DNA of 46,223 nt, from contig JBDRYG010000003.1 in assembly GCA_039803305.1 (NCBI GenBank), forward strand, positions 1 to 46,223, in the 5' to 3' direction. Below, in pieces: positions 9,403-17,021 of this stretch; position 1 is the stretch's first letter, and every line of letters begins with the position of its first letter. The notes beneath the pieces were generated by a model that had not been told where the DNA came from, did not search any database, and worked only from the letters and a program-made list of their open reading frames with translations. The translations under genes were made by a program, and so were the position numbers. The DNA comes from a candidate division WOR-3 bacterium. Its GTDB lineage: Bacteria > Hydrothermota > Hydrothermia > UBA1063.

Positions 9403-11481
9403 ATGAGAATTCTGGAAAACTTAAATGAGCAACAAAGGCAGGCAGTTACTATACCTGGCGGTCCGGTTCTTGTTATTGCAGGTGCAGGTTCGGGCAAAAC
9501 GAGAGTTCTAACCCACCGGGTTGCTTATCTAATAGGTCATAAAAAGGTTCCCCCACATCGTATCTTTGTTGCAACATTTACCAATAAGGCTGCTGATGAG
9601 ATGAAAGAGAGAATTAGGCATCTAATTGGTGAAGACATCAAGGACTTGTGGATAGGTACATTTCACTCTCTATGTGCGAGAATATTGAGACAGGAGATTG
9701 AAAGACTTGGAACTCATACAAGGTACTTCACAATTATGGACCGCGAGGATCAGAAAAAAATTTTAAAGGATATCCTTGGAGGTGCTATAAAAAACTTGAG
9801 TCTTGATAATTTAGTCGAGACCATTTCCCAGGTCAAAACGGGACGCACTACCCCAGGAGATTATTTCATAAGCGAAATATTAGAGCGATATACGAAAAAA
9901 ATGCTTGACTATAACGCACTGGATTTTGATGACTTACTACTCTACCCCCTTGAGATTTTCAAAAAATTTCCCGAAGTTCTAGAGTACTACTCGTCAAAAT
10001 TCTTGCATGTGCTTGTGGATGAATATCAAGACACAAACCATGAACAATATCTTCTAATCAAAGCCATCTCGCGCGTTCATAGAAATATATTCGTTGTTGG
10101 AGATGAAGATCAGTCAATTTATTCATTTCGCGGGGCGGATGTCCAGAACATTTTAAACTTCGAAAAGGACTACCCTGACTGTAAAATCATCAAACTGGAA
10201 CAAAACTACCGAAGCACTCAAAAAATTTTGAAAGCTGCCACTGCAGTAATTAACAATAACAAACTTAGAATCGGGAAAACGTTATGGACCCTAAATCCAA
10301 AAGGTAAGAACATAGAAATTTTTGAAGCCGAGGATGAAGAAGAGGAAGCTGAATTTGTACTCGATATAATAAAAAAATCAAATAGAAAATTGGGTGACTT
10401 TCTCATCTTATACAGAATAAATGCCCAGTCTCGAGCTTTTGAATCAGTATTTCAGAGAAGTGGAATCCCCTACAAAATCGTAGGAGGTATAAAATTTTAC
10501 GAAAGAAAAGAAATAAAGGACATACTTGCCTACTTCAAGGTAATTGTTAATCCACAGGATGAGATAGCATTAGAGCGAATTATTAATGTTCCCTCAAGGG
10601 GGATAGGAGACGAGACCATTAGACTTCTTAAGAATGCTGCGGCGGTAAATAAAATAAGTTTGATGGAAGCTTTAGAGAGACATCGTGAGATCTTAAGCAT
10701 TTCTGAAAGATCCCACAGAGCTCTGGAAAATTTTAATAAACTCCTTATAACTCTCAGGGAAAACGCTTCCAAATTAAACGCCTACGAATTCGCCCTTTTT
10801 ATGCTGGATGAAATAAAGTATTACGATTATATTTATAGAACTGAAGAGGCTGAGAAAGCAGAAGATAAAGTTGATAACATCAAAGAACTCCTTGGGGAAA
10901 TTAAAAAAATGGTTGAGGAAGCTAACATCAAGCTTGATGAATATATTCAACAAGTAAGCTTAAGAACCGACATTGATGAGTTCAATGCATCACCAGATTT
11001 TGTTACTCTTATGACAGTCCACAACGCAAAAGGCCTCGAATTTCCTGTGGTAATAATAACCGGTATGGAAGAATCCGTCTTTCCCCATTTTAGATCTAAA
11101 AACAGCGAATTGGAACTCGAAGAGGAAAGAAGACTATTTCATGTGGCTCTGACAAGAGCAATGGAAGAAGTATACATATCCTACGCAAAAACTCGATACT
11201 TAAGGAAAGGATATCTTTTACCTTCAAGATTCCTGAATGAATTACCCGCCGAGGTTATAGAGTATCGGTACAAAGATACTGATAATTATTTTGCATCCAG
11301 TAAACAAGATATAGAAAGGAAAAGAGCTGAAGTTTTTGAACCAGGAGACCTTGTCTATCACCAAATATTTGGGATGGGTAAAGTAGTAGAACTTTACGAG
11401 GACAAAATCAGAATAAATTTTTTCAAGGCTGGATTAAAAACACTGGTGGTTGAGTATGCAAATCTTAAGAGAGTGGAATAG
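9403..11481 (+). CDS. pcrA: PcrA/UvrD SF1 DNA helicase
   Basis: LNEQQ, AGAGSGKT, TFTNKAA, VDEYQD, LEQNYRS, TVHNAKGLEF, EERRLFHVALTRA, C-terminal Tudor-like domain. Start set at ATG 9403 (MRILENLN). Confidence 0.95.
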   Translation: MRILENLNEQQRQAVTIPGGPVLVIAGAGSGKTRVLTHRVAYLIGHKKVPPHRIFVATFTNKAADEMKERIRHLIGEDIKDLWIGTFHSLCARILRQEIERLGTHTRYFTIMDREDQKKILKDILGGAIKNLSLDNLVETISQVKTGRTTPGDYFISEILERYTKKMLDYNALDFDDLLLYPLEIFKKFPEVLEYYSSKFLHVLVDEYQDTNHEQYLLIKAISRVHRNIFVVGDEDQSIYSFRGADVQNILNFEKDYPDCKIIKLEQNYRSTQKILKAATAVINNNKLRIGKTLWTLNPKGKNIEIFEAEDEEEEAEFVLDIIKKSNRKLGDFLILYRINAQSRAFESVFQRSGIPYKIVGGIKFYERKEIKDILAYFKVIVNPQDEIALERIINVPSRGIGDETIRLLKNAAAVNKISLMEALERHREILSISERSHRALENFNKLLITLRENASKLNAYEFALFMLDEIKYYDYIYRTEEAEKAEDKVDNIKELLGEIKKMVEEANIKLDEYIQQVSLRTDIDEFNASPDFVTLMTVHNAKGLEFPVVIITGMEESVFPHFRSKNSELELEEERRLFHVALTRAMEEVYISYAKTRYLRKGYLLPSRFLNELPAEVIEYRYKDTDNYFASSKQDIERKRAEVFEPGDLVYHQIFGMGKVVELYEDKIRINFFKAGLKTLVVEYANLKRVE

Positions 11482-12346
11482 AAGGCTTTTTCTTAAAATA
11501 AACTGGGTTGATTTTGTAGTAATAACCCTGGGTACTCTTCTTACTGCTCTTGGTATCGTAGTATTTATTGCACCAAACAAGATCGCAGCTGGAGGTGTAA
11601 GTGGCATTAGCATTATCCTGCATCATCTTTTCCACTTTCCAATCGGACTTACTATGCTTATTATAAACCTATTTCTTTTCGTTTTAGCTTTCTTCCTGCT
11701 CGGTAGTGAATTCGGAATTAAAAGCATATACGCAACTATAATATTAAGTGTCTTCGTTGACTTACTGGGGTGGATTATTCCGAGCTCTCTATACATTGAA
11801 GATATCGTAATAGCTACGATCTTTGGTAATTTACTGACCGGTACTGGCATTGCTTTGGTCATGTCCAGGGGCTCGTCAACTGGCGGTACAGACATAGTTG
11901 CAATGATTGCCAGGAAATATACCAATATTGATGTGGGAAAGGCACTAATGGGGGTAGATTTTGTTATAACCCTTTTTGCTGGTATATTTTTCGGTAAAAT
12001 CATAGGTATGTATTCCTTACTCGCTGTTATAATTAATACGAACACCATTGATTATGTACTGGAGGGTATAACTACTTCATTTCAGGCATTCATAGTAACC
12101 TCAAAACCTTTTGCGATCAAGGATAGGGTTATTAAGGAACTTAATCGAGGAGTTACTTTTCTTAAGGCTATTGGCGGCTACACAGGTGAAGAAAAACTGG
12201 GTATTCTGGTTGTTCTCAAGTCACCTCGTGAAATAGTGAAGCTAAAAGAGATAGTAAAAGAAGAGGACCCCGCAGCTTTTATGACTATCTCTCATGTCCG
12301 CGAGGTCCTCGGAGAAGGTTTTAAAAAGATTTCTTCTTCATTTTAG
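11450..12346 (+). CDS. YitT family (DUF161/DUF2179) membrane protein
   Basis: AAGGVSG, SSTGGTDIVA, RGVT..GGYTG, DPAAF..EVLGEGF. Exact start uncertain. Confidence 0.9.
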   Translation: MSMQILREWNRRLFLKINWVDFVVITLGTLLTALGIVVFIAPNKIAAGGVSGISIILHHLFHFPIGLTMLIINLFLFVLAFFLLGSEFGIKSIYATIILSVFVDLLGWIIPSSLYIEDIVIATIFGNLLTGTGIALVMSRGSSTGGTDIVAMIARKYTNIDVGKALMGVDFVITLFAGIFFGKIIGMYSLLAVIINTNTIDYVLEGITTSFQAFIVTSKPFAIKDRVIKELNRGVTFLKAIGGYTGEEKLGILVVLKSPREIVKLKEIVKEEDPAAFMTISHVREVLGEGFKKISSSF

Positions 12347-12975
12347 TAAGGTTTTATTCCCAGCCACTGGGTTAATAGAAAGTTTAGTCTACCGACAAGG
12401 AGTGATAAACGCGCCATAACAGTGTATCCGAACGAAGCACCGAACCCCAGCATCAGCAATAGTAATCCAGCTTTTGAAATTTGCTTTAGTCCTGGCCTTT
12501 CATGGGGAACAGAAAAATAGAAGAAAAACAGCACCACGATTACTCCGAAGAAAAGGATCAATGCATTAACCCATGCAGCGAGATTTGGATAAGGAGGTCG
12601 AAGGATAGAACCACTGAGTTGTTCAAAAATGTAGGCTTTCATGGAAAGGGGAATACTCAGACCAGAACCGACACCAAGGAGAAATGCCATTGGCCACCTC
12701 ATCAAATAAGAAACCTTCGGTACTGCGAATGTAAAGTATAACAAACCAAGAAGAAATGGAACAATGAAAACAAACTGCTTCTGTACAAAGAGAGGCTCAA
12801 AAAGGTTGGGAAGAAAAGCATTTTTATAAACAATCACAAGACCATAACCAGTTGCAATACCAACAAAAAGATGCTCCGCGAACCTAAAAATCGGATTATC
12901 TTTGTATAAAAAGGTGAAAATAGCGAGAGTCAAAAGAGCTTGAATCCAAACCCAAAAATTTGTTGAAATATGCAT
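12343..12975 (-). CDS. Hypothetical membrane protein, about 6 TM (gene 4 of the DUF6754 operon)
   Basis: Six hydrophobic segments; KDNPIFRFAEHLFVG and GFGASFGYTVMARLSLL motifs. Start ATG 12975 after AAGGAGG. Confidence 0.75.
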   Translation of the reverse strand: MHISTNFWVWIQALLTLAIFTFLYKDNPIFRFAEHLFVGIATGYGLVIVYKNAFLPNLFEPLFVQKQFVFIVPFLLGLLYFTFAVPKVSYLMRWPMAFLLGVGSGLSIPLSMKAYIFEQLSGSILRPPYPNLAAWVNALILFFGVIVVLFFFYFSVPHERPGLKQISKAGLLLLMLGFGASFGYTVMARLSLLVGRLNFLLTQWLGIKPY

Positions 12976-12976
12976 C

Positions 12977-13828
12977 TTATTTCCTCCTTTTCGATGCAAA
13001 ATACCCGATGTTACCAATAATTATAAATAATATTATAAGAAGCTGTCCTATTGAATTTGCATCCATCATTCTTATTGCGGAAGAAGGTGGAGCCTTGTAT
13101 CCCTCTTTTTCCAGAATCTGATTCACTGCATACTCATACTCGGCTGCAGCTTTCATACCTGCCAGCATACCTATGAACTGCCCGGTTTGTATATAAGGAT
13201 AGAAATCACCAGCACTTACCGCAGTGACAGCGGCAGCAACATTTGCACCGTATCGGGTTTTTGCATATATAACCCACGTAACTGGTAAAGAAGAGCCACT
13301 GAAACTGATCACCAAAGAAATATCTTTATAGTTTCTTACAGGTTTTAAAGCATATATATCTTTTGTAGGAGTTCCAAAATAATCCTTATTAAAGACCCCT
13401 TTTATGTCTTCCCCAATTCCAAGGATTACTGCCGATAAACCAGCCTGATAACCTAAGAATACATAATCAGTATCCCTCCTCGCCTTAAGTAGAGACTCCG
13501 CTTCAGCAAAGGCATCAAGCGCAAGGCCTGCCCCCTGCACACCCAGGGTCATACCTATAGGAATAACACCCCTTAGTATGCAATGTTTTACCACAGCTTT
13601 ATACATAGGATGAACTTCAGGTGCCACAGAAGGATCATAATCAGCAGATAGAAGAACATATGAACCCGCCGGGAGGGTATCAATAAATTCAAAAACTCTT
13701 TTTACCTGAGGTGACATTTTCTGGGGAAACTTAGGCGGAAAGATTAAAGGTACAACAAGCCCAACAAGCAGAATAATGTAAATATAGAATCTATTAATTT
13801 TACCAAGTTTTTCAAGAAAAGACCTCAT
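12977..13828 (-). CDS. Hypothetical membrane protein, TM-alpha/beta domain-TM (gene 3 of the DUF6754 operon)
   Basis: Terminal TM helices flank a soluble domain; DYDP..PE..P and YPY..TGQ..G.LAG.K.AAEYE. AGGAGG SD. Confidence 0.75.
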   Translation of the reverse strand: MRSFLEKLGKINRFYIYIILLVGLVVPLIFPPKFPQKMSPQVKRVFEFIDTLPAGSYVLLSADYDPSVAPEVHPMYKAVVKHCILRGVIPIGMTLGVQGAGLALDAFAEAESLLKARRDTDYVFLGYQAGLSAVILGIGEDIKGVFNKDYFGTPTKDIYALKPVRNYKDISLVISFSGSSLPVTWVIYAKTRYGANVAAAVTAVSAGDFYPYIQTGQFIGMLAGMKAAAEYEYAVNQILEKEGYKAPPSSAIRMMDANSIGQLLIILFIIIGNIGYFASKRRK

Positions 13829-13830
13829 AT

Positions 13831-14448
13831 TCAGCCTCCTATCCAGCTTCTTTCTACACCAAGTATTATCTTGACAGAAGTCGCAACTACACCAAGACCA
13901 ACTCCTATCAAAATACCGCGCTTTGATGCAAGATTAGGGACTGCCATTATCCATTCAACAATCTCAGAGGAGCGGGGGATGTAATTCCCAACAGTAGTCG
14001 TACCAATTATGATGAGAAAAGCAGTGATCATGAGAATTGTTGCTTCAAGGCCTCTAACTCTAAAGGCACGATAAGCTGCCGAGGCCATAAAGAAAGCTAA
14101 AAGGGAGAAAGTGGTTGCCTGTAGTGGAACCATAACATTCTGGTACATTTTCTGAAAGAGAGACTGTTTTTCTGTCCCACCGATGAAACCTATAAGAACC
14201 ATTGAGAAAAATGCAACTAAAGCAAGGCCACTATAAGGTGCATAATTCTTATTTTTTAATCTTCTCGTGTGAAACCTTAGAAAACTTATAATTGCAACCA
14301 CATATGCCATGGAGGAGATTGCTCTACTCCACTTAATTGCATAGTCGTACATAGATTGAGAGACAGGATGGGGGATAAAATACTGAAAAGTCATTAAAAC
14401 TCCTGTAATAAATACCAGAAATAAAGGTACACCCTTTTTAAAATCCAT
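13831..14448 (-). CDS. Hypothetical membrane protein, about 6 TM (gene 2 of the DUF6754 operon)
   Basis: Six hydrophobic segments; FSLLAFFMASAAYRAFR and KRGILIGVGLG..KIILGVER. GGAGGTG SD before ATG 14448. Confidence 0.75.
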   Translation of the reverse strand: MDFKKGVPLFLVFITGVLMTFQYFIPHPVSQSMYDYAIKWSRAISSMAYVVAIISFLRFHTRRLKNKNYAPYSGLALVAFFSMVLIGFIGGTEKQSLFQKMYQNVMVPLQATTFSLLAFFMASAAYRAFRVRGLEATILMITAFLIIIGTTTVGNYIPRSSEIVEWIMAVPNLASKRGILIGVGLGVVATSVKIILGVERSWIGG

Positions 14449-14457
14449 ATTCACCTC

Positions 14458-15552
14458 CTAAAAAAGCCCAAGGGTTAATCTAACTCCAAAAAGACCAAAT
14501 ATACTAACCACAACAAGAAGTAAACCAAGAATTAATTTAGACAAATCCTGTCCCTTTATCGTTCCAGTTAAAAGCGGCTCTTTCGAGAGGTAAGCACTCG
14601 CAGCGTAAAGTTCTTCGCCAATAAGAGTATAATCGCAGGTCACAACAAAAAATGGAAGCTGAGCAACCGAATCAGTACCTGCGACCTGAATAGCCCCTGT
14701 AGATGCACCTGTTTCTGATAAAATAAGGGATTCTGCAAAATAGTATCCCATAAAGAAATTAGTAGCACTCTGCTCCCTGACCATTAACGCAGAAACGTGG
14801 GCTGCATATCCAAACTGGCTATCTGTGGCGAAATACACATCCTCCCCTCGAAATAAATCAGGACGTCCAATTGACGTATACGCCTCTTTAACAATTTCCC
14901 TGGCCATTGTATACACCACAGGGTCATAGCATGGAACAATAATCCTCGTTTCATACTCACCAGCTCTTTTAGCGATATGAGAAAGAATATTTAATGCTGC
15001 AATAGTAGCCACATCGGATAATGTGCTTAATCCGCATACATACACTATAGGTCTTCCCATCTCCGTAGCTCTTCCTACCGCCTCATTTACGGCCTCAAGA
15101 CCCGCGATGGGTCTTAAATATAGTGATTTCTGAGCCTTGGCCTGGGAAATGAAATATAGTAAAATAGCAACGTACAGCAATATTGAAAGAAGAAGGGAAA
15201 AACGCGAGGGGTTAAACCATTTCGCCTGAGGCTTAATAAATTCACTAAAATCTGATTCGAATACAGCGTTCCCGTTAATCAGCGCAATAACTTTGTATCT
15301 ATATTCATACTTGTAATTAACAGTATTATCGGAGAATACCCTGTAAAAAGGTAAAATTTCAAGGGTATCAACTATCCCGTCATTTCTCTCCCTAACCAGG
15401 CGGATCGAAGTAACAGCCGGCCTCAGGCTATCCGGAATAGGAAGCTCTATTTTCAACACTTTTCCGGTCCCGTATATATCCTCTTCATGGGGTTGTGGAT
15501 AAAAAACCCTGGGACCGCTGGTTAAAAGAGCCAGCATTAATAATATCCCCAT
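14458..15552 (-). CDS. Membrane protein with an FN3-like N-terminal domain and a DUF6754-like domain (gene 1 of the operon)
   Basis: Signal peptide, beta-rich domain (FSDNTV..YEYRYKVIA), TM helix, then LRPIAGLEAVNEAVGRATEMGRP and QLPFF..CDYTLIGEELYAASAYLS recognised as DUF6754-like. Confidence 0.75.
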   Translation of the reverse strand: MGILLMLALLTSGPRVFYPQPHEEDIYGTGKVLKIELPIPDSLRPAVTSIRLVRERNDGIVDTLEILPFYRVFSDNTVNYKYEYRYKVIALINGNAVFESDFSEFIKPQAKWFNPSRFSLLLSILLYVAILLYFISQAKAQKSLYLRPIAGLEAVNEAVGRATEMGRPIVYVCGLSTLSDVATIAALNILSHIAKRAGEYETRIIVPCYDPVVYTMAREIVKEAYTSIGRPDLFRGEDVYFATDSQFGYAAHVSALMVREQSATNFFMGYYFAESLILSETGASTGAIQVAGTDSVAQLPFFVVTCDYTLIGEELYAASAYLSKEPLLTGTIKGQDLSKLILGLLLVVVSIFGLFGVRLTLGLF

Positions 15553-15557
15553 TCTTA

Positions 15558-15602
15558 CCTCCTGTTAGTCCTTTATTTTAAACTAAAAAACCTCTAAAGC
15601 AA
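15558..15602 (-). promoter_or_regulatory. Promoter and SD of the four-gene membrane operon
   Basis: Minus strand TTGCTT-N16-TAAAAT, then AGGAGGT shortly before ATG 15552. Confidence 0.55.
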
Positions 15603-15647
15603 AATATTACACTAAAATCACAAATAATTTGTTCGAATTACTAACAG

Positions 15648-15659
15648 TATAATTTCAAA
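15648..15659 (+). promoter_or_regulatory. -10 box directly upstream of the MATE gene, probably leaderless
   Basis: TATAAT-N6-ATG, no SD. The -35 box is unclear. Confidence 0.5.
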
Positions 15660-17021
15660 ATGCATGAATCCCATGAAAAAAGAGAGCATGTAAAAATTTT
15701 ATTTGAAAATCCTCAATCATCAATTTTAAAGCTTGCTACTCCGACTGTTGTTGCAAATTTTGTACAAATCTTTTACAGTTTAGTTGACGCATTCTGGATT
15801 TCGACTCTAAAGAACGCCTCTCTTGGAGTGGCCGGCGTAGGCCTTGCCCAGCCATTAAACTTCGCTGCTATATCCTTCGCTGGCGGAATTGGTGTTGGAA
15901 CCAATTCTCTGATTTCCAGATCTATCGGTGCAAAAGATTACAGAAAAGCAAGCAAAGCTGCCTCAACCGGGATTAAAATATCCATCCTTACCTCATTTCT
16001 TGTTGGTCTGATTCTCGTTATTTTCGCAAAAAGAATATTCATAAAACTCGGTGCAGGGGACGCGCTTGAAAATGCAATAAGATATGGAAGAATTATTTTC
16101 CTCTTTTTACCTGTAAGCTTTCTTAACATGATTTTTAACTACATTTTTCGAGCAGAGGGGGACACAAGACGATCAATGTATGCGATGATAACTGGTTCGA
16201 TTCTCAATATTTTTCTCGATCCCATTTTCATTCTCATTTTTAAGATGGGAGTTGTTGGCGTAGCGATAGCAACAGTGATCTCACAGGTGGTTTCTCTTCT
16301 TTTGCTTTTGTTTTGGGCCCTTTTCCAAAAATCTACTTTTATAAGAATAACATTAAGAGATTCTCTGTTAGATTTTAAAACTTGCTGGGAGATAATGGGT
16401 GTTGGTTTCCCTTTTACACTGTCTCAGTTCTTAATATCTTTCTCACAAATGCTTTACAATCATCTTGTCGCAAATTTGAGAGGTCCACAAGGTATTGCCA
16501 TTTACAGTACCGGTATGAGATTAAACCAGTTTGCTGTCCTTCCCTCCCTCGGCATTTCAGCTGCAACAATATCCATAGTAGGTGCCTGGTATGGTGCTAA
16601 AAATAAAGAGATGGTTCGCAAAAGTATAATAGAATCATGGAAACTTGGGATCAAGATACAGAGTTTTATAGCTATTTTCGTTTATTCAGCTGCACCTTTA
16701 CTCGCAAGAATATTTGCGAACGATATAACAATGAAAAAAATTATGCCTGAAGTAGTTACTTTTTTGAGGATTACCTCATTATCCTACATCTTTACACCAA
16801 TAGGAATGTATACATCGTCAGCCTTTAACGGGATGGGACAAGGCATTAATTCTGCAATTCTAACATTTATGAGACTTCTTGTAATAGCATATCCCATTTC
16901 ATTCTTACTAGGCAAATGGTTAAATATGGGACTTACAGGTGTTTGGTGGGGCCTTAATATTGCTCCCATTGGGGCGAGTGTAATAGCTATAACTTGGCTA
17001 AAAATCAAAAAAATTCTCTAA
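15660..17021 (+). CDS. MATE family efflux transporter (DinF/PfMATE-like)
   Basis: About 12 TM; YSLVDAFW, RAEGDT, LNIFLDPIFI, GVVGVAIATVISQ, GLTGVWWG. Confidence 0.93.
   Translation: MHESHEKREHVKILFENPQSSILKLATPTVVANFVQIFYSLVDAFWISTLKNASLGVAGVGLAQPLNFAAISFAGGIGVGTNSLISRSIGAKDYRKASKAASTGIKISILTSFLVGLILVIFAKRIFIKLGAGDALENAIRYGRIIFLFLPVSFLNMIFNYIFRAEGDTRRSMYAMITGSILNIFLDPIFILIFKMGVVGVAIATVISQVVSLLLLLFWALFQKSTFIRITLRDSLLDFKTCWEIMGVGFPFTLSQFLISFSQMLYNHLVANLRGPQGIAIYSTGMRLNQFAVLPSLGISAATISIVGAWYGAKNKEMVRKSIIESWKLGIKIQSFIAIFVYSAAPLLARIFANDITMKKIMPEVVTFLRITSLSYIFTPIGMYTSSAFNGMGQGINSAILTFMRLLVIAYPISFLLGKWLNMGLTGVWWGLNIAPIGASVIAITWLKIKKIL

Follow-up and report, generated by a model that had tools for sequence, protein, structure and literature searches.

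A conserved four-subunit DUF6754 membrane module in a Hydrothermota bacterium and its candidate link to an actin-fold ATPase

Introduction

Among catalogued protein families, the closest point of reference for the operon described here is Pfam DUF6754 (PF20539), a family without known function that describes a single domain. This domain is that of g1, the first gene of a four-gene operon (g1 to g4) located at positions 12,343 to 15,552 of a 46,223-nucleotide (nt) stretch of DNA (the window; contig JBDRYG010000003.1, assembly GCA_039803305.1) from a candidate division WOR-3 bacterium of the phylum Hydrothermota; g2, g3 and g4 belong to no described family. An initial annotation, made from the sequence alone, regarded the operon as a candidate new transporter or channel built from two paralog pairs of inverted topology. 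A full-text literature search found no publication on DUF6754/PF20539, on PF13941, or on GlmL together with ASKHA, and the titles and opening lines of abstracts on GlmL, glutamate mutase and membranes held nothing relevant.

Four kinds of described systems invite comparison. GlmL/MutL, an accessory protein of the B12-dependent glutamate mutase, and Or-4, connected with ornithine degradation, share their actin/ASKHA fold family with the ATPase that is linked to the operon by its genomic distribution (see below). The linked ATPase is about 150 amino acids (aa) longer than these proteins, and in the Bacillota-type genomes sampled it stands apart by score, with 600 bits or more for the long form and no more than 230 bits for the short GlmL-type; mutase genes were not found beside it at the loci examined. 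Energy-coupling factor (ECF) transporters are alike in the logic proposed for the module, as genomes of the present genus have one ATPase gene together with two to three diverged membrane modules. There is no relation in sequence or fold, the ATPase being of the actin fold and not ABC, and each module has four subunits instead of one; the likeness is an analogy only. The Rnf and Nqr complexes, like the module, contain two subunits of about 200 aa with six transmembrane (TM) segments each (in Rnf/Nqr the antiparallel RnfA/RnfE or NqrD/NqrE), and the barrel-sandwich N-terminal domain of RnfC/NqrA finds a weak RnfC_N match in a partner protein of the module. Finally, small multidrug resistance (SMR) proteins (EmrE) and Fluc resemble g1 and g3 in that the partners run in opposite directions; their halves are demonstrably homologous and function without an ATPase, whereas no homology is detectable between g1 and g3 or between g2 and g4. 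The module lies far from every known kind of system and has never been studied.

Results and discussion

Conservation of the four-gene module

This genome has the conserved four-subunit DUF6754 module twice, in diverged copies, and the operon is one of them. In a scan of one genome per species, followed by placement of g2 to g4 by tblastn, relatives of g1 were found at 35 loci in Hydrothermia/Hydrothermota, Cloacimonadota, Zixiibacteriota, Coatesbacteria, Eisenbacteria, Acidobacteriota, Armatimonadota and Bacillota. The complete order g1-g2-g3-g4 was present at 20 of these, and five more, which end at contig edges, are consistent with it as far as their sequence reaches. Another seven, all of the Armatimonadota type, have g1 alone despite room downstream, and three could not be classified (masked or cut). 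The g2 gene is conserved directly behind g1 at 24 loci. Within Armatimonadota, g3 and g4 were present in five of five genomes, directly behind g1 in four; the notion of "solo" DUF6754 genes in this phylum was rejected for the genome checked, that of the g1-alone locus L028, in which g3 and g4 lie on another contig. The module is found in 57 of 61 genomes of the own phylum and in 89 of 101 Armatimonadota, usually in several copies, and a survey of its neighbours revealed no theme common to the phyla. The expectation that the four genes would co-occur in other genomes without matching a characterised complex was borne out on both counts, and g1 to g4 constitute a conserved set, predicted to form four membrane-associated subunits, that corresponds to no characterised complex.

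The second copy in this genome (contig C12; L003:454-3845, minus strand) encodes proteins of 368, 264, 274 and 216 aa. It begins 8 nt behind a gene for S-adenosylhomocysteine (AdoHcy) hydrolase, itself preceded by metK, and ends with an overlap between its last gene and the beginning of lspA. The two copies have diverged unevenly: identity is 57.0% in the cytoplasmic domain of g1, 39.1% in g4, 35.1% in g2, 32.9% in the outer domain of g3 and 15.6% in the FN3 domain of g1. Such a pattern (57.0% inside against 15.6-39.1% elsewhere) is what one would see if the inside domain had to suit one common partner, encoded by a single gene, while the outside parts diverged in specificity.

A linked GlmL/MutL-like ATPase

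A candidate for this partner is the product of the only PF13941 gene in the genome, a protein of 608 aa (E 5.8e-132) that matches all 450 positions of the Pfam MutL model and carries an invariant ATDCGSTTTKAI motif near its N-terminus. The gene is encoded on contig C50 (L042:4446-6272), between an RseP-like gene and a sigma-70-family gene, and its product shares 55-79% identity with relatives in other phyla. None of the three NCBIfam models of GlmL, Or-4 and the GlmL family (NF040745, NF040744 and TIGR01319) is matched at anywhere near its cut-off (235.7 against 475, 224.5 against 600 and 174.4 against 204.05), and for this reason the linked ATPase is assigned, by profile score, to a separate subfamily that is neither GlmL nor Or-4.

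The distribution of this ATPase follows that of DUF6754. Among the 61 genomes of the own phylum, 55 have both, two have DUF6754 only (G023, 87% complete, and G060, 94%), one has the ATPase only (G035, 77%), and three, which belong to a single genus, have neither (G011, G025 and G047, 94-95% complete; of the three co-occurrence samples, completeness figures pertain to this one). In Armatimonadota (101 genomes), both were found in 89, DUF6754 alone in none, the ATPase alone in two and neither in ten. In the Bacillota-type phylum (151 genomes), eight genomes have both, two have DUF6754 only, one has the long-form ATPase only and 140 have neither; the long form is thus present in eight of the ten genomes with DUF6754 and in one of the 141 without, while short GlmL-type genes occur in about 50 of these genomes irrespective of DUF6754. 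Five of five further genomes from other phyla contain both.

Physical linkage points in the same direction. Of the 55 own-phylum genomes that have both, 12 carry the ATPase gene and a DUF6754 gene no more than about 3 kb apart, and linkage was also seen at L011 and L007. In some relatives the ATPase gene stands immediately before the module, accompanied by the gene for a partner protein. In one relative (G044; L040, G044:C3:186500-200500), the order is gcvPB, a 110-aa open reading frame (ORF), the ATPase gene, a gene for a 373-aa partner protein, g1-g4, a second set g1'-g4' and a lipoate-ligase-like gene. The 110-aa ORF just before the ATPase gene belongs to no family. One homologue of the partner protein is found in the present genome (375 aa, 60% identity, E 4.7e-142); its gene, on contig C1, has a TMEM260-like/TPR gene on one side and an aminotransferase gene on the other. 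The matches of the partner protein to barrel-sandwich families are weak (RnfC_N, E 4.3e-5, 23.9 bits against a cut-off of 25.6; Biotin_lipoyl), and RnfC_N or NQRA_N is found in 10-30% of the members of its sister clusters. Profile searches against PDB sequences gave no match for the ATPase profile or the partner protein. Judged by distribution and linkage, the system seems to have an ATPase although the operon itself has none.

Architecture of g1 and g3

The g1 protein matches DUF6754 with 364.6 bits (E 2.9e-109; gathering score 27 bits) over residues 109-357, a span that covers its first TM helix, an alpha/beta domain and its second TM helix. Since g2, g3 and g4 have no PF20539 match, the description of the locus as a DUF6754 operon holds for g1 and for none of the other three proteins. 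In the AlphaFold2 (AF2) model of g1 (pLDDT 87.3), a signal-like N-terminus is followed by an FN3 domain, a TM helix, the alpha/beta domain and a further TM helix. The N-terminal part has the beta-sandwich of an FN3 fold, and FN3 was also the sole match in the PDB-sequence profile search with g1, with E 0.05. The cytoplasmic domain has the element order H-(E-H)x6 in the model. An alignment of 35 sequences has 28 invariant columns, and the invariant polar residues of the domain include R147, R161, T163, E164, Q246, E274, E280, Q289, Q298, D307, Y308, T309 and E314.

The g3 protein consists of a basic N-terminal tail, a TM helix (residues 13-29), an alpha/beta domain (40-241), a second TM helix (250-280) and a basic C-terminal tail (AF2 pLDDT 92.2), a model that agrees with the TM-alpha/beta-TM layout first read from the sequence. 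The two g3 tails are short with four K/R each, and g1 carries K/K/R after its first TM helix. Because of these charges and the exported FN3 domain of g1, the alpha/beta domains of g1 and g3 most likely lie on opposite faces of the membrane, that of g1 in the cytoplasm and that of g3 outside, as the initial annotation had proposed.

Searches for relatives of these domains gave little beyond generic folds. Foldseek with the g1 model returned no match at 1e-3 or better, and with the g3 model a single borderline match, OtsA (E 9.8e-4, TMq 0.34); VIA-align returned generic Rossmann folds only. Neither Pfam and NCBIfam above their cut-offs nor the PDB profile search matched g2, g3 or g4. A separate profile search with g3 gave 272 matches among 7998 scored candidates, of which the best 120 were all unnamed and without a Pfam domain, and a search of the Protein Atlas with g3 retrieved unnamed clusters only.

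Forms of g1 that differ at the N-terminus were also noted. Two Cloacimonadota forms (L064:10800-13727 and L064:5489-8323, minus strand) reach 975 and 944 aa, the single FN3 domain being replaced by an N-terminal extension of about 700 aa that matches nothing in Pfam. In one Armatimonadota g1 (L028:5543-7594), whose gene is not linked to g3 and g4, a cytoplasmic zinc ribbon takes the place of FN3 at the N-terminus; a gene for an M48 (HtpX-like) peptidase follows it. An apparent fusion of g1 with an S49 peptidase in L010 (5782-8169) was rejected as an artefact, since masking in the public record lets the g1 frame run on into that of the peptidase.

The membrane subunits g2 and g4

Both g2 and g4 are polytopic, with six hydrophobic segments in g2 and six to seven in g4, in agreement with the sizes of about 205-210 aa and the roughly six segments first ascribed to each; the spacing of the TM segments is also alike. 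The orientation of g2 is predicted to be N-in, as originally proposed, from family means of 6.2 K/R in the inside loops against 2.2 in the outside loops. In g4, the K/R sums for the two orientations are about equal (by loop charge counts), and favour neither N-in nor the N-out orientation suggested for it. Alignment of g4 revealed the conserved motifs LYKDNP and FGAxFGYTVMAR. The second-copy g2 (L003:1935-2729) has 264 aa, against 205 aa for the g2 of the operon, and the extra residues, about 55 between TM5 and TM6, form two further hydrophobic segments.

An identity of g2 and g4 with the Rnf/Nqr subunits was considered and rejected, as there was no PF02508 match and hhalign against this genome's own RnfE and RnfA gave probabilities of at most 1.3% (with single-sequence templates). 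No redox cofactor motifs were seen. A regular Rnf complex is encoded separately from the module in this genome, with rnfE and rnfA adjacent (contig C45; L066:867-2067).

A possible ATP-driven machine

A physical contact between the module and the ATPase received weak support from complex prediction. The ATPase together with g1 residues 138-338 scored 0.55 (0.55, 0.57 and 0.55 in separate runs), while the best of three controls scored 0.02; the runs agreed in at least 93% of contacts, and the partner pLDDT was at least 75. In calibration, 58 of 80 solved complexes passed the mark applied, as did 2 of 110 mismatched pairs, and a pass with a score of 0.60 or below was seen in 7 of the 80 solved complexes and in both of the passing mismatches; as custom alignments were used here, these calibration counts are only rough. 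PDB profile searches with g1 and the ATPase revealed no similar solved complex, as judged by sequence. Given the independent genomic link, the prediction is counted as modest support, and not as proof, for docking of the g1 cytoplasmic domain on the shared ATPase.

That module and actin-fold ATPase form one machine has, in our estimate, about an even chance. Such a machine could work as follows. The cytoplasmic domain of g1 would dock on the shared ATPase, and ATP-driven movement would pass through the two TM helices of g1 to a membrane core of g2 and g4. The fast-diverging outside parts, FN3 and the g3 domain, would bind ligand, with each module copy having a ligand of its own. The modules would then be interchangeable specificity units of an ATP-driven machine, most likely one for uptake, a direction suggested by the logic of one energiser and several specificity modules seen in ECF. 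On architectural grounds, the module plus ATPase may tentatively be regarded as an ATP-driven transporter. With similar reserve, one may envisage that the module and the long GlmL-like protein make up a class of membrane machine not recognised before and found in many bacterial phyla. Its motor would be an actin-fold (ASKHA) protein in place of an ABC, P-type, V/F-type or AAA+ ATPase, and its interchangeable four-subunit modules would each bear their own outward binding domains.

Several observations weigh against this proposal. DUF6754 occurs without the ATPase in G023, G060, G182 and G266, and the ATPase without DUF6754 in G035, G067, G136 and G173. Related genomes are not independent of one another, and the co-absences represent few events (in the own phylum, one genus). 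Copy numbers in Bacillota do not fit one ATPase serving many modules, as seen in G246 with one DUF6754 match and four long-form ATPase matches. In the present genome, the ATPase gene, the partner gene and both modules are found at four separate loci with no sign of co-regulation. The docking score lies in a weak band in which, by the calibration of the method, most predictions are wrong except where the pairing was already likely on other grounds, and the many invariant polar residues of the g1 domain would also fit an enzyme or a ligand-binding site. Transport itself is argued from architecture and by analogy, and to our knowledge no known transporter uses an actin-fold ATPase.

It is also conceivable, if somewhat unlikely, that the module does not transport at all and is a membrane anchor or transducer that links events outside the cell, at the FN3 and g3 domains, to the cytoplasm, for instance in envelope biogenesis, surface attachment or signalling, with the GlmL-like protein acting on the g1 domain as an ATP-dependent chaperone/remodeller or scaffold. 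The placement of the ATPase in Pfam MutL/GlmL argues for such a role: GlmL is thought to act as an ATP-dependent chaperone/remodeller for B12 mutases, and the characterised MutL/GlmL relatives are accessory proteins of enzymes, not pumps. An identity of 55-79% across phyla is typical of core housekeeping factors, both the FN3 domain and the long Cloacimonadota extensions of g1 would suit large or surface ligands, and the second copy is packed directly before lspA. However, two polytopic subunits with conserved intramembrane motifs exceed the need of an anchor, the variable neighbouring genes lack an envelope theme, and the presence of several diverged modules in one genome is more in keeping with variants in specificity than with one structural role. 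A membrane-bound enzyme or group-translocation system, in which the g1 domain would be catalytic or substrate-binding and the actin-fold protein, as a kinase-like enzyme, would modify an incoming carboxylic acid or similar compound, appears improbable. It would account for the dense invariant polar residues of the g1 domain, many ASKHA-fold proteins are kinases, and some neighbours concern carboxylic acids, namely the AMP-binding enzyme of one Cloacimonadota-type lineage (see below) and the lipoate-protein-ligase-like gene that follows the modules in G044. Yet g1 belongs to no enzyme family and its best structural matches are generic (Foldseek E above 1e-3), the neighbours vary by lineage, and a single enzyme that handles what several diverged modules deliver would not easily agree with their having different substrates.

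The reading from which the analysis started, a self-contained secondary transporter or channel without an ATPase, made of two antiparallel paralog pairs in the manner of SMR or Fluc, is given little chance. It draws on real features, in that g1 and g3 have the same layout and element order in opposite orientation, g2 and g4 are alike in size and TM spacing with g2 N-in, and the operon itself has no ATPase; of the A-B-A'-B' complex envisaged, the soluble domains on opposite faces of the membrane stand. Homology within the pairs is not supported. BLASTP gave best E values of 4.0 for g1/g3 and 0.061 for g2/g4, and hhalign of family profiles gave probabilities of 2.3% for g1/g3, with the last TM helix alone aligned, and 8.5% for g2/g4; for the g1/g3 pair, restriction to the domains and a deeper profile of g3 (Neff 4.5) gave 0.4%. 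The alignments first made by eye, and with them the two paralog pairs, thus found no support in sequence. In the models, g1 and g3 share a generic Rossmann-like fold with identical element order, H-(E-H)x6-TM; this sandwich is among the commonest folds known, and for that reason the likeness is not taken as paralogy, while the like layout and element order leave room for a common origin of the two. With the ambiguous orientation of g4, an antiparallel g2/g4 pair is hypothetical, and a self-contained transporter is further weakened by the tight tie of the module to a dedicated actin-fold ATPase and a partner encoded elsewhere.

For the proposed machine of module and ATPase, the consequences would be considerable. 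Three of the four module proteins lack any family, though the module is near universal in its own phylum and in Armatimonadota, and the apparent energiser is among the most conserved proteins examined. If the link to the ATPase is true, no membrane system before this one would have been found to run on an actin-fold ATPase of the GlmL type. Thousands of genes now annotated as "hypothetical" in uncultured lineages, most of them anaerobic or thermophilic and with nutrient uptake that is little understood, would then also gain a function.

Operon layout and expression signals

The ORF listing of the window shows four co-oriented ORFs on the minus strand in the order g1-g2-g3-g4 (Table 1), separated by gaps of 9, 2 and 1 nt, confirming the close packing first noted.

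Table 1. Positions of the module genes, their main domains and the upstream spacer within the window; locations relative to the membrane are predicted
Feature	Position	Strand	Remarks
g1 (subunit A)	15552..14458	minus	364 aa
FN3 domain of g1, residues ~12-112	15217..15519	minus	exported, outside the cell membrane
Rossmann-like alpha/beta domain of g1, residues ~140-325	14578..15135	minus	most likely cytoplasmic; best conserved part of g1
g2 (subunit B)	14448..13831	minus	205 aa from ATG; ORF list begins at GTG 14454
g3 (subunit C)	13828..12977	minus	283 aa
Rossmann-like domain of g3, residues ~33-249	13082..13732	minus	most likely outward-facing
g4 (subunit D)	12975..12343	minus	210 aa from ATG
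A+T-rich spacer between g1 and the divergent MATE gene	15553..15659		107 nt; from sequence

A GGAGG sequence precedes each of the four ATG codons by 4-9 nt, so that the strong Shine-Dalgarno (SD) sites reported for all four genes were recovered; the window as a whole has 12 GGAGG-N4-9-ATG sites against a chance expectation of 7.0 +/- 2.6, and four of the 12 are the starts of g1 to g4. A single promoter for g1-g4 is plausible and would presumably lie in the 107-nt spacer 5' of g1, although no promoter is identifiable there. The claim of one promoter could not be demonstrated, as promoter-like sites (11) were at chance level (10.4 +/- 2.6 in shuffles). The terminator scan likewise gave chance level only, and an Rfam search of the operon region had no match. 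Metatranscriptome contigs from a relative 95-99% alike (library X9) span nearly all of g1-g4 and leave the spacer at about 15552-15710 uncovered, while the DNA run continues across it; this coverage, from contigs of one study, is neither proof of transcription nor evidence of a transcript start.

Genomic neighbourhood

Pfam and NCBIfam searches of g1-g4 revealed no ATPase or enzyme family, which upholds the corresponding statement of the initial annotation, and no ABC ATPase or known permease family was found within the four genes. The genes flanking the operon encode MATE, FtsH, YitT and helicase proteins.

Other neighbours were noted in single lineages. All eight Cloacimonadota-type loci scanned (L012, L015, L016, L017, L018, L020, L022 and L038), which represent one lineage, have directly behind g4, in the same orientation, a gene for an AMP-binding (acyl-CoA-synthetase-like) protein. 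Upstream of the module, where three such loci were scanned, all three encode a fused ABC-2 transporter of about 1090-1115 aa. In the window, the YitT/DUF2179-family membrane gene (11450-12346, plus strand) is convergent with g4 and has 4 nt in common with the g4 stop region (12343-12346); a member of the same family is also found downstream of the module in a relative (L006).

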